Assembly: GCA_902628835.1 (NCBI GenBank)
Contig: CACOPD010000003.1
Span: 22,053-86,052 of the forward strand
DNA: 64,000 nt
Reading direction: 5' to 3'
Origin: an uncultured Alphaproteobacteria bacterium
GTDB taxonomy: Bacteria; Pseudomonadota; Alphaproteobacteria; HIMB59; GCA-002718135
In this document: piece after piece, positions 59,362-62,477 of the stretch
Layout of the letters: the number at the start of each line of letters is the position of its first letter
How positions within the stretch are numbered: the first letter of the stretch is position 1
Position numbers and translations under genes: made by a program
Notes under the pieces: generated by a model
What the model saw: the letters and a program-made list of their open reading frames with translations, nothing else
Database searches by the model: none
What the model was told of the DNA's origin: nothing

Positions 59362-59565
59362 CTAAAGATTTATCTCAAAAATTCTTTCTTTGTCCTTCTC
59401 AATAATTTTTTTTATTTTGAACTTTGATGTCTTGCTAAGTTTTTCTCCTTTATTAGTCATGAATGATTTCATTTTAATCACCTCTTTTTCAGGCATTTTT
59501 CTTTCGTATTTTAAAATATTTTTTTTTCCAGAAATTACAAAAACAGTTTTCATTTTTTTCTCCAT
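59362..59565 (-). CDS. Small lysine-rich hypothetical protein; may not be a real gene.
   Basis: 67-aa ORF with no recognisable motifs. An equally long antisense ORF exists (59390..59575 +), which is expected for K-rich/F-rich mirror frames in AT-rich DNA. Confidence 0.25.
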   Translation of the reverse strand: MEKKMKTVFVISGKKNILKYERKMPEKEVIKMKSFMTNKGEKLSKTSKFKIKKIIEKDKERIFEINL

Positions 59566-59675
59566 TAAATTTTAGAATTACACTATTTTTATTACTTGTA
59601 GAAATTATTAAATCAATCAAAAAGGGAAATCCAATTTATTGTTTTTTTTTGAAATTTGTTTTTGATAATATTTAA

Positions 59676-59694
59676 GGGGGAGATAATCTCCCCC
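59676..59694 (-). terminator. GC-rich hairpin downstream of amt; probable terminator, possibly bidirectional.
   Basis: GGGGGAGAT-A-ATCTCCCCC lies 54 nt past the amt stop. On the minus strand it is followed by TTAAATATTAT, an imperfect U-tail. On the plus strand it is followed by A7. Confidence 0.5.
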
Positions 59695-59747
59695 AAAAAA
59701 ATAGCAGCTAACTATTGGAAGGTATTGTGTTAACTACTAAACCTAAT

Positions 59748-61034
59748 TTAATCACGAATAGAATAAGCGATTACACCGACTTCAGCTTTGTCAGTTCCTA
59801 GTTTTTCTGCCTCTTCACTAATGCGAAGACCCATTGTATTTTTAATTATATAAATAACTATGTATGATGTAATAAATACAAATAAACATATAGATACTAC
59901 GCCAAGTAATTGAGTAGCGTAAGAAGCATCAGGATTTGTAAATGGAACAACTAAAGTGCCCCATATACCTGCAAACATGTGAACAGGAATTGCTCCAACT
60001 ACATCATCAAGTTTTAGTGAATTTAAAAGCTGAGTTCCATAATACATAATTACTCCACCGATAGCTCCAATAAAAATTGCTAGAAGTGGTGACGGCATTA
60101 AAGGTTCTGCTGTAATAGAAACTAATCCTGCAAGAGCTCCATTGAGCATCATAACAATATCTGTTTTTCCACCAATTAATCTAGTTATTGCTGCACCTGC
60201 CATACATCCTCCACATGCGGCTAGCTGTGTGTTCATAAATATTTGTGACATGGCTGTTGCATCCTCATATGACCCTAATGCTAATTGTGATCCTCCATTA
60301 AAACCATACCAACCCATCCATAAAATGAATGTTCCAAGTGTTACGAGAGGTATCGAAGAAGGAGCAAATGGTGCCATGTTAGCAGGTTCACCTGACTCAG
60401 TAAATCTTCCAAGTCTAGGGCCTAATAATATAACACCGGCTAAAGCAGCAGATCCTCCACATGCGTGAACTAATGTAGATCCAGCAAAATCAGAAAAGCC
60501 AATAGCATCAAGCCAACCGCCTCCCCATTCCCATCCCATTTGTATAGGATAAATAAAACCTCCAAGTATTGCAGCAAAAACAAAAAATGGCCAAATTTTT
60601 ATCCTTTCAGCAACAGCACCGGAAACAATTGAAACAGTAGCACAAACGAATAATGCTTGAAAAAACCAATCAGAAGCATCTGAATATCCAGTTTCTATTG
60701 AAGTATTATCAGTCCATAAAGAAGGGAAGCCTAAATAACCTCCCTCTGGAACTCCGTATCCTAAATTGTAACCAAACAAATAAAACACTATGGAAACAAT
60801 TGCAAATTTGCCAATATTTTTTGCAGCAATTGTTGAAACACTTCTAGTTGTAACAAGACCAGATTCTAAAAATAAAAAACCAGCAGCCATCCACATTACT
60901 AAAAAACCGCAGACTAAAAATGAAAATGTATTTAAAATATATGCAACCTCTGCATCTACTTCTGCATTTGCATATGAACTAAAAAATAAAGTTGGAATTA
61001 TTATTCCTAATAAATAAAGAGATTTTCTAAACAT
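59748..61034 (-). CDS. amtB: Ammonium transporter (Amt family).
   Basis: Signal peptide MFRKSLYLLGIIIPTLFFSSYANA. Contains AAGFLFLESG, DFAGSTLVHACGG, HMFAGIWGT and 11 TM helices. GGAGG lies 4 nt upstream of ATG 61034. The track's GTG 61070 extension (MGWCCENYNGGL) is unlikely. Confidence 0.9.
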   Translation of the reverse strand: MFRKSLYLLGIIIPTLFFSSYANAEVDAEVAYILNTFSFLVCGFLVMWMAAGFLFLESGLVTTRSVSTIAAKNIGKFAIVSIVFYLFGYNLGYGVPEGGYLGFPSLWTDNTSIETGYSDASDWFFQALFVCATVSIVSGAVAERIKIWPFFVFAAILGGFIYPIQMGWEWGGGWLDAIGFSDFAGSTLVHACGGSAALAGVILLGPRLGRFTESGEPANMAPFAPSSIPLVTLGTFILWMGWYGFNGGSQLALGSYEDATAMSQIFMNTQLAACGGCMAGAAITRLIGGKTDIVMMLNGALAGLVSITAEPLMPSPLLAIFIGAIGGVIMYYGTQLLNSLKLDDVVGAIPVHMFAGIWGTLVVPFTNPDASYATQLLGVVSICLFVFITSYIVIYIIKNTMGLRISEEAEKLGTDKAEVGVIAYSIRD

Positions 61035-61121
61035 CAATCCTCCATTATAATTTTCACAACACCAGCCCACCTCGAGCGATGTTTAATTCATGCGTAGCTA
61101 TGGAAATTATAATATAAGATC

Positions 61122-61172
61122 CGCGTTCCTTCGGTTTAACCTACTTCCGATCTGCTTTCACAGATTGAACGA
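61122..61172 (-). promoter_or_regulatory. glnA-RNA-type glutamine riboswitch aptamer, 3' copy of a tandem pair.
   Basis: The minus strand reads UCGUUCA-AUCUG-UGAAAG-CAGAU-CGGAAGUAG-GGU-UAA-ACC-GAAGGAACGCG. The conserved cores CGUUC…GGAAGUAG…AAGGAACG are present and the stems are closed by base pairs different from the other copy. Confidence 0.8.
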
Positions 61173-61188
61173 TTTGATAACTTAGCAT

Positions 61189-61238
61189 GCGTTCCTTCGA
61201 CTTTCGTCTACTTCCGTCACTCAAAAGAGTGATGAACG
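61189..61238 (-). promoter_or_regulatory. glnA-RNA-type glutamine riboswitch aptamer, 5' copy of a tandem pair.
   Basis: The minus strand reads CGUUCA-UCACUC-UUUU-GAGUGA-CGGAAGUA-GAC-GAAA-GUC-GAAGGAACGC. It has the same conserved cores, with P1 formed by CGUUC/GAACG and a GAAA-capped short stem. Confidence 0.8.
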
Positions 61239-61325
61239 TAAAAAATCATATAGATTTTTATAATTTAATTTTTAAGCTTAAATTTGTAAATGTAAATATG
61301 CAAAAAATGCATATCAAAAAATATA

Positions 61326-62477
61326 TTACTTTATTGTTGATAAATCAGTCCACACAGAATTATTATTACTAGAATTTACACTGGCATTAATAAACTTCAT
61401 AATATGTAATCCATCATTTATGTTTGGAAGAATCTTTAACAATTCTTCTTTATTTTCTTTATTTTGAATAACATCTGCAGCATCTGAATAAATTTGTGCA
61501 AATGCTTCAAGATAACCTTCTGGATGACCAGCAGGGATTCGCACGTTAACTTCGGTTCCCTCAACTTTAATTAAACCACCTCTAGTTATTGTTTGACTGG
61601 GTTTTCCTACTTGACTAAAAGTTGCATAATTTGGATTTTCTTGACTCCATTTTAATGCTCCCTTGTCTCCATATATAGCTATAGTAAAATTATTTTCTTC
61701 ACCTGTTGCAACTTGAGAAATAGATAATGAACCCTTAGCTCCGTTATTTAATCTTATCATTATTGAAGCATCGTCATCTAATTTTCTTCCCTTAACAAAA
61801 GTTGTAAGATCTGCACTAACTGATTGTAATTTTAATTGAGTTATAAATTCTAACAAATGCATAGTATGACTGCCAATATCACCTACACTTCCTGCAGCTC
61901 CACTTCTTGAGGGATCAGTTCTCCATTCTGCTTGTTTATTTGATCCTGAGTCTTCTTCTTTTGAGCCAAGCCAACCTTGAAGATAAGATCCTTTAATAAT
62001 TCTTATTTCGCCTAATGCTCCATTTTCAATAAGTGATCTCATAACTCTAACAACTGGATAACCAGAATAATTATGAGTTAAGAAAAAATGAGCATTTGAT
62101 TTTGAAACCGCTTCAACTAAATTATGAGCATCTTTCATTGTAGAGGTCATAGGTTTGTCACAAATGACATGAATATTTTTATTAAGAAATTCTATTGCTG
62201 GTTCAGCATGCATATGATTTGGCGTAACAATGGATACTACGTCAATGCCATCATCTCTTTTTGATTCTTTCTCGGCCATAGTTTTAAAATCTGGGTAACT
62301 TCTTGAAGGATCAAGACCAATTTCTTCAGCAGATTTAGCTGCTTTTTCTGGGGTTGAAGATAAGCAACCAGCAACAAATTCATACTTATCATCCATCCTG
62401 GCACATAGACGATGTACAGCTCCTATAAATGCTCCTTGGCCACCACCTACCATTCCAAGTTTTAATCTTCTTCCCAT
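61326..62477 (-). CDS. Gfo/Idh/MocA-family NAD(P)-dependent oxidoreductase.
   Basis: N-terminal Rossmann fold LKLGMVGGGQGAFIG, then TPNHMH and CDKP (EKP-like motif). 383 aa. Confidence 0.9.
   Translation of the reverse strand: MGRRLKLGMVGGGQGAFIGAVHRLCARMDDKYEFVAGCLSSTPEKAAKSAEEIGLDPSRSYPDFKTMAEKESKRDDGIDVVSIVTPNHMHAEPAIEFLNKNIHVICDKPMTSTMKDAHNLVEAVSKSNAHFFLTHNYSGYPVVRVMRSLIENGALGEIRIIKGSYLQGWLGSKEEDSGSNKQAEWRTDPSRSGAAGSVGDIGSHTMHLLEFITQLKLQSVSADLTTFVKGRKLDDDASIMIRLNNGAKGSLSISQVATGEENNFTIAIYGDKGALKWSQENPNYATFSQVGKPSQTITRGGLIKVEGTEVNVRIPAGHPEGYLEAFAQIYSDAADVIQNKENKEELLKILPNINDGLHIMKFINASVNSSNNNSVWTDLSTIK

Follow-up and report, generated by a model that had tools for sequence, protein, structure and literature searches.

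Two glutamine aptamers and a conserved downstream platform in the amt leader of a SAR11-like alphaproteobacterium

The DNA described here (the window) is a stretch of 64,000 nucleotides (nt), with a G+C content of about 30%, from contig CACOPD010000003.1 (assembly GCA_902628835.1) of an uncultured Alphaproteobacteria bacterium. Its minus strand carries amt, the gene of an ammonium transporter, and a leader in which two glutamine aptamers of the glnA RNA family (Rfam RF01739) stand in tandem. The gene upstream of the leader, on the same strand, encodes a GFO/IDH/MocA oxidoreductase and ends at 61326, so that the leader sits in a spacer of about 290 nt. The amt start codon lies 4 nt beyond a GGAGG Shine-Dalgarno (SD) sequence, which an earlier note made from the sequence by eye had already named, and both SD and ATG are kept in relatives. 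An alternative GTG start at 61070 was rejected: relatives have insertions and deletions there, whereas the arrangement GGAGG-N4-ATG is conserved. Coordinates are collected in Table 1.

When the whole window was compared by cmscan with all 4227 Rfam families, exactly two matches rose above the gathering scores, both to RF01739 (gathering score 35) and both on the minus strand. At gathering thresholds the 64 kb held no match to a tRNA, an rRNA or another riboswitch besides these two, and none to the glutamine-II family (RF01704). A chance origin of both matches is excluded. Each copy reads CGUUCA-hairpin-CGGAAGUAG-hairpin-GAAGGAACGC within 61240-61120 and has the constituents of glnA RNA, namely a P1 helix CGUUC/GAACG, a variable P2, a P3 of 3 base pairs (bp), the junctions CGGAAGUAG and GAAGG, and the "linchpin" C on the 3' side of P1, at 61189 in aptamer 1 and 61123 in aptamer 2. 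No open reading frame (ORF) separates the aptamers, and both precede a single one. Since every feature of sequence and structure that defines the family is found, the element is, on these grounds, a pair of complete glutamine-I (glnA RNA) aptamers in the amt 5' leader, and we infer that they regulate amt in cis. The two glnA-RNA-type aptamers that the earlier note had recognized in this leader are thus borne out by the covariance-model search it had proposed, run here as cmscan, and the stems it had singled out (CACUC/GAGUG versus AUCUG/CAGAU, GAC/GUC versus GGU/ACC) are the P2 and P3 of the RF01739 model. Its positions hold to within one base: aptamer 2 is 49 nt long and ends at 61123, not 61122; the spacer between the aptamers measures 17 nt (61188-61172) rather than 16, and amt starts 88 nt (61122-61035) rather than 87 nt downstream of aptamer 2.

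Table 1. Positions of the leader elements and of amt, in window coordinates
Feature	Position	Strand	Description
Palindrome ATATGCA-TTTTT-TGCATAT	61314-61296	minus	perfect 7-nt inverted repeat; adjoins a -35-like TTTACA; likely promoter
Glutamine aptamer 1 (RF01739)	61240-61186	minus	63.9 bits, E 7.9e-12, model positions 1-53
Aptamer 1 core, CGUUCA...GAAGGAACGC	61238-61189	minus	50 nt
Aptamer 1 P1	61238-61234 with 61194-61190	minus	
Aptamer 1 P2	61232-61217	minus	
Aptamer 1 junction CGGAAGUAG	61216-61208	minus	
Aptamer 1 P3	61208-61199	minus	
Inter-aptamer linker CAUGCUAAGUUAUCAAAU	61189-61172	minus	nt 61189-61177 are the proposed PL 5' strand
Glutamine aptamer 2 (RF01739)	61173-61120	minus	59.6 bits, E 1.2e-10, model positions 1-53
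Aptamer 2 core	61171-61123	minus	49 nt
Aptamer 2 P1	61171-61167 with 61128-61124	minus	
Helix PL (predicted)	CAUGCnnAGUUAU 61189-61177 with AUAGCUnnGCAUG 61101-61089	minus	5 + 6 bp; encloses aptamer 2
Hairpin H1 (proposed)	61122-61102	minus	GGAucUUA-loop-UAAuuUCC; stacked on the aptamer 2 P1 base; RNAalifold and RNAfold
Conserved block B2 UAAUUUCCAUAGCUACGCAUG	61109-61089	minus	nearly every position invariant in 84 leaders
Anti-RBS core UAAUUUCCAUA	61109-61099	minus	complementary to AUGGAGG of the ribosome binding site (RBS)
Hairpin H2	61083-61058	minus	between B2 and the RBS; 4 of 8 pairs changed on both sides in alignment A1
Ribosome binding region AAAAUUAUAAUGGAGGAUUGAUG	61054-61032	minus	GGAGG 61043-61039; start codon 61034-61032
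amt, ammonium transporter	61034-59748	minus	428 aa; PF00909, E 7.7e-99

The same arrangement recurs in relatives. The single-cell genome "uncultured Alphaproteobacteria bacterium AH-324-C03" encodes an Amt protein 100% identical to that of the window but departs from it at a few leader nucleotides, so that the window stems from a close relative of that genome and not from the genome itself. Further marine single-cell genomes come next in relatedness, along with Pelagibacterales metagenome-assembled genomes. Among the 78 genome loci with amt orthologues that were recovered, the doublet occupies the same place upstream of amt in every leader-containing locus whose Amt is at least 84% identical to that of the window. 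About 35 of these loci possess a second amt paralog some 2 kb upstream, with a doublet of its own and the same downstream sequence. An example is locus L004 (doublet 253-369, paralog 433-1749), where an ORF of 124 amino acids without a Pfam match (1850-2224) lies between the two riboswitch-controlled paralogs, a position suggestive of a part in taking up nitrogen or in controlling this uptake. The window has a single amt copy at this locus, with the oxidoreductase gene where relatives have the second amt. The Pelagibacteraceae and Pelagibacter amt loci, whose Amt is at most 82% identical, gave no aptamer by pattern search, nor by Rfam in the 17 loci so scanned; among these aptamer-free loci are those with the hupA-amtB arrangement seen in cultured subclade Ia.

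An alignment of 84 distinct orthologous or paralogous leaders (A1) contains compensatory pairs, changed on both sides, in the P2 (two) and P3 (two) of aptamer 1 and in the P2 (two) and P3 (one) of aptamer 2. The covariation that the earlier note had seen between the two copies thereby extends across the orthologous leaders whose alignment it had suggested. P1 and the junction nucleotides are invariant, save for a near-invariant G33 in the first CGGAAGUAG. The covariation score of the whole structure was reached by none of 500 column shuffles, and 98.1% of cells are paired in the A1 structure versus 23-42% for slid partners, every slid control being beaten. The doublet and the roughly 90 nt of platform downstream of it are a conserved module before amt in a SAR11-like alphaproteobacterial lineage.

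A scan of marine metagenomes for the tandem pattern returned at least 120 loci, in which three classes of doublet can be told apart among the matches listed. The linker of class A, with GCAUGC, is 13-18 nt long, and the block downstream is the one found in the window. This class precedes Amt in at least 31 loci (50-98% identity to the window Amt over the aligned stretch, 62-98% for full-length matches), but it is also found before glutamine synthetase type I (GS; L088, L124, L128, L143, L152, L155, L188 and L195) and before a circularly permuted (CP) ATP-grasp type 2 gene (PF14403, E 4e-153; L118, L164, L172, L187 and L190), a family not usually tied to nitrogen control. In the GS-type leaders the conserved block is UUUCAUAACUAGAGCAUG, within which UUUCAUAA complements the start region UUAUGAAA exactly. 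The ATP-grasp leaders are the only ones in which the module reaches its gene by way of an upstream ORF of 20 codons that ends in a stop codon overlapping the ATG. In class B (L081, L085, L095, L099, L101 and at least some 45 others) the aptamers stand 8-11 nt apart, and basic ORFs of 50-54 codons without a Pfam match come 20-22 nt further on; its hosts may be phages or picocyanobacteria. In class C (L086, L149 and L169) a 24-nt linker has its own hairpin, a 7-bp hairpin follows aptamer 2, and the gene is GSII-like; this class does look like two separate platforms.

None of this is a new kind of biology: the element, its arrangement and its target gene are known, and the annotation is right. 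The 2010 survey that described glnA RNAs placed them upstream of nitrogen genes, ammonium transporters included, and noted tandem copies (Weinberg 2010, PMC2864571). Like those RNAs, the doublet here occupies the 5' leader of a nitrogen-assimilation gene. Its host, however, is a SAR11-like alphaproteobacterium, not a cyanobacterium, and the taxonomic origin of the metagenomic glutamine riboswitches was called unknown (Klahn 2018, PMC6212724). With the glutamine-II class (Downstream-peptide motif, RF01704) the element shares its ligand, a related binding core and, if the model developed below is right, action at the level of the RBS; there the RBS is part of the aptamer pseudoknot, whereas here it lies about 80 nt downstream.

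What the aptamers might act upon is to be sought in the platform between aptamer 2 and amt. The earlier note had found neither a terminator nor an anti-SD element there. The first part of that statement stands: 59500-61500 contains no intrinsic terminator-like site, H2 being followed by a scattered U-rich stretch and no U-tract. The second part does not, as UAAUUUCCAUA is an anti-SD candidate. Across A1, aptamer 2 is followed by a near-invariant GCGGAUCUUA, an invariant block UAAUUUCCAUAGCUnnGCAUGA, H2 and then the RBS. Duplex calculations show UUUCCAUA to be the complement of the UAUGGAG(G) in the RBS, and the RBS region is able to pair either with 61121-61104 or with the B2 core. Two predicted helices would compete for this block. 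In PL, CAUGC..AGUUAU of the linker pairs with AUAGCUnnGCAUG, a pairing given by RNAfold with the aptamer helices enforced. Pairing of the PL type is predicted for 83 of the 85 distinct class-A leaders, versus 7 of 50 class-B leaders, and each of the 11 pairs can form in 82 or more of the 84 A1 sequences. The 3' strand of H1 is the first half of the anti-RBS; H1 is invariant in A1. Between them, PL and H1 would cover UAAUUUCCAUA. Once the aptamer helices are enforced and the sequence is extended by 33 nt into the coding region, the window leader reaches its minimum energy (-52.1 kcal/mol) as PL, H1 and H2; with the aptamer helices enforced, most relatives give these three elements too. H2 may serve as a spacer or insulator. 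A leader peptide was considered and rejected, the short ORFs that follow GCAUG differing among relatives (MN*, MMQCITKG*, MNSST*).

These elements lend themselves to a model in which glutamine turns translation off. In the absence of glutamine, the nucleotides just 3' of each P1 would nucleate a helix: the linker after aptamer 1 would pair with AUAGCUnnGCAUG to form PL, and GGA..UUA after aptamer 2 with UAA..UCC to form H1. Together the two helices would bury the block UAAUUUCCAUAGCU, leaving the RBS open and Amt synthesis on. In the solved aptamer, as summarized in PMC11477058, a junction G is recruited by glutamine to pair with the C after P1, and base triples arise at the P1 base; the structure paper has been cited as showing that this "melt[s] a short helix attached to P1" (Klahn 2018, PMC6212724). 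In the window, C 61189 is the first nucleotide of PL, and C 61123 lies one nucleotide ahead of H1. One could thus envision that bound glutamine, by recruiting the C next to P1 and packing junction residues at the P1 base, would loosen PL and H1. The freed UUUCCAUA, together in the window with GAUCUU..AAUUU, would then pair with AUGGAGG and block initiation.

The bound state was mimicked by forbidding the three nucleotides after each P1 to pair, and the mean probability that the RBS (-13 to +3) is unpaired was compared with that of the free state. It fell from 0.51 to 0.31 when both aptamers were treated as bound, and to 0.40 or 0.44 when only aptamer 1 or aptamer 2 was. Predicted accessibility decreased in 101 of 119 leaders and increased in none. 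For the window itself the value dropped from 0.30 to 0.12, the fold flipping to a long SD helix. Shuffling the RBS reduced the drop to 0.046, versus 0.213 with the real RBS (39/45 leaders). The loss of accessibility under the mimic, taken with this control, favors a switch that glutamine turns off. Such a switch also fits physiology: the nearest Pelagibacter Ia loci are hupA-amtB (SAR11_0817/0818; PMC2704228), an AmtB whose induction accompanies nitrogen limitation (PMC3870248). On balance we lean toward a translational switch turned off by glutamine, in which each aptamer would set free its part of one anti-RBS. The window SD has a further predicted partner in the free state, namely codons 4-7 (AAAUCUCUUUAU, about 61022-61011).

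Several observations weigh against this model. Neither PL nor H1 varies in the 84 A1 sequences, and hence neither has any covariation there; in class-A leaders of more distant origin, PL differs on only one side of each altered pair, and always in a way that wobble pairing tolerates (A-U to G-U, U-G to U-A). Compensation between anti-RBS and RBS that seemed visible by eye (12 bp in L176, 14 of 15 in L103) had to be discarded and is attributed to AU-rich flanks, for B2 pairs no better with its own RBS (-8.16 kcal/mol) than with those of other leaders (-8.52 kcal/mol; permutation p 0.94). The mimic of the bound state weakens PL and H1 by construction, which makes the modelling partly circular, and the leaders are closely related, so that counts of them are not independent. 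Folding by RNAfold without constraints, set against folding with the aptamers alone blocked, gives no direction across 85 leaders (RBS accessibility about 0.49 versus 0.47). In the GS-type leaders, UUUCAUAA matches the start-codon region and not the SD, and leader L111 has no obvious anti-RBS.

A further objection comes from the window platform folded alone, without downstream context: its most stable fold, formed regardless of PL, is an 18-bp helix that sequesters the SD (GAUCUUaUAUUAUAAUUU / AAAUUAUAAUGgAGGAUU, -22 kcal/mol; 61036-61054 with 61104-61121), and this is the minimum-energy fold if the sequence ends at the ATG. Such a helix would suit the opposite polarity. In vivo, a glutamine-I riboswitch has been tested only in Synechocystis, where the gifB element proved to be a translational switch turned on by glutamine (Klahn 2018, PMC6212724). 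As in the gifB model, GGAUCUU and the spacer after aptamer 2 could pair with the SD (AGGAUU..) and keep amt off by default until glutamine melts the helix. Expression data from strain HTCC1062 could be read the same way, the protein of the Amt paralog SAR11_1310 having been detected only in nitrogen-replete cells with its mRNA unchanged (PMC3870248). However, the 18-bp helix arises from substitutions common to the window and L001 and is absent in other relatives, and with 33 nt of coding sequence the window's minimum-energy fold reverts to PL and H1. GGAUCUU is kept in the proximal amt paralog, though the RBS of the latter, AUGGAGUUAAUAAUG, cannot pair with it. The natural variants found after aptamer 2 tell in the same direction: GGAAC, GGAUA and GGAAA add pairs to H1, while GGAAC and GGAUA would break the pairing with an SD that is itself unchanged; put generally, natural variants of this B1 segment strengthen H1 yet would break direct B1:SD pairing. 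Blocking the nucleotides adjacent to P1, finally, raised predicted RBS accessibility in 0 of 119 leaders. We therefore consider a glutamine-on switch unlikely. By prediction a transporter is repressed here, in contrast to the activation of gifB, and the platform of PL, H1 and anti-RBS is not that of gifB.

The extreme conservation of the platform calls for a word on mechanisms other than pairing with the RBS. Pairing alone would not demand nearly so strict a conservation as the block AUUUCCAUAGCUAAGCAUGA shows, and this, like the missing covariation of the proposed helices, could be accounted for if it were the binding site of a protein or small RNA, with control exerted on transcript elongation or stability through Rho-dependent termination or RNase access. 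Against this, in most leaders the RBS or the start region finds its complement in the conserved core, the modelled effect is abolished by shuffling the RBS, and an intrinsic terminator was not found; we give this alternative little credence.

If translation is indeed what the aptamers control, one may ask why there are two of them. Glutamine doublets (157, along with four triplets) have been filed as "pseudo-cooperative", that is, as independent complete riboswitches in series (Sherlock 2022, PMC9481103). The arrangement described here resembles those doublets in having two glutamine aptamers upstream of one ORF with no gene between them, and single-aptamer mimics each give a partial effect, as would be expected if each aptamer had its own platform, one of them perhaps transcriptional and the other translational. 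The 17-nt linker, however, contains no hairpin, U-tract or RBS, and no platform for aptamer 1 was found in it; instead, its predicted partner lies beyond aptamer 2 in nearly all class-A leaders, as set out above for PL. The proposed targets of both aptamers, moreover, are adjacent halves of one invariant block. Two switches in series thus seem improbable for this class. In the glutamine-off model each aptamer would guard part of a single mask, and two bound ligands would be needed for the full effect. A steeper response from tandem aptamers is plausible, and agrees with the literature on tandems and doublets as well as with the modelled partial effect of each aptamer. Should the model hold, the doublet would parallel the tandem glycine riboswitch, with two like aptamers for one amino acid, a single platform and a sharper response. 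The aptamer folds are unrelated, though, and coupling would be achieved by two helices masking the anti-RBS, not by docking of the aptamers.

It is tempting to carry this reasoning further and to view the class-A tandem as one integrated device with two inputs, in which each aptamer would control one helix stacked on the base of its P1, PL in the case of aptamer 1 and H1 in that of aptamer 2. The two helices would mask adjacent halves of the anti-RBS, and full repression would require both sites to be occupied. In a SAR11-like lineage, the device would head a small RNA-controlled nitrogen regulon made up of one or two amt genes, glnA and the CP-ATP-grasp gene, with RNA standing in for PII and NtrC. 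PL and H1 do converge, as predicted, on one invariant block, but neither helix covaries, and we advance this wider proposal as a tentative one, with more doubt than conviction.

The aptamers are probably not alone in regulating amt. The palindrome in front of the leader is present in one exact copy in the window and is not enriched there (7 matches with at most two mismatches versus 5.3 expected). Yet its motif, TATGCA-N5/6-TGCATA, stands before amt in relatives, as it does in the hupA-amtB spacers of Pelagibacter that have no riboswitch (L064-L068, L075 and L078). Its position at the amt promoter, outside the riboswitch, marks it as a sequence that may be the operator of a protein nitrogen regulator, and its retention in riboswitch-free Pelagibacter speaks for transcriptional control at the protein level as well. 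The proposal of the earlier note that glutamine sensing by RNA could be the main nitrogen switch for ammonium uptake was thus an overreach; RNA sensing is probably layered on a protein-controlled promoter. No PII or NtrBC-type gene had been visible in the window by eye, and tblastn agrees, with a best E value of 2.6 for Escherichia coli GlnB and the NtrC central domain as queries. Cultured SAR11 bacteria have no PII or NtrBC, and two of their Amt paralogs are regulated with mRNA and protein levels uncoupled (Smith 2013, PMC3870248). On the other side of amt, directly 3' of it on the minus strand, a lysine-rich ORF of 67 amino acids without a Pfam match (59565-59362) could be co-transcribed with it.

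What the analysis adds to a known element is, for this subclass of glutamine doublets, a proposed architecture that experiment can test, in which both aptamers would act on one RBS mask. It also ties the glutamine riboswitches of "marine metagenomes" to a concrete SAR11-like lineage, in which the doublet and its platform travel as one module before amt, glnA and an ATP-grasp gene. If the model of two aptamers and one mask is true, glutamine doublets would shift to the rare class of dual aptamers with a single platform, and we would have a simple account, itself open to test, of how streamlined, PII-less bacteria of the ocean stop taking up ammonium when glutamine is plentiful.

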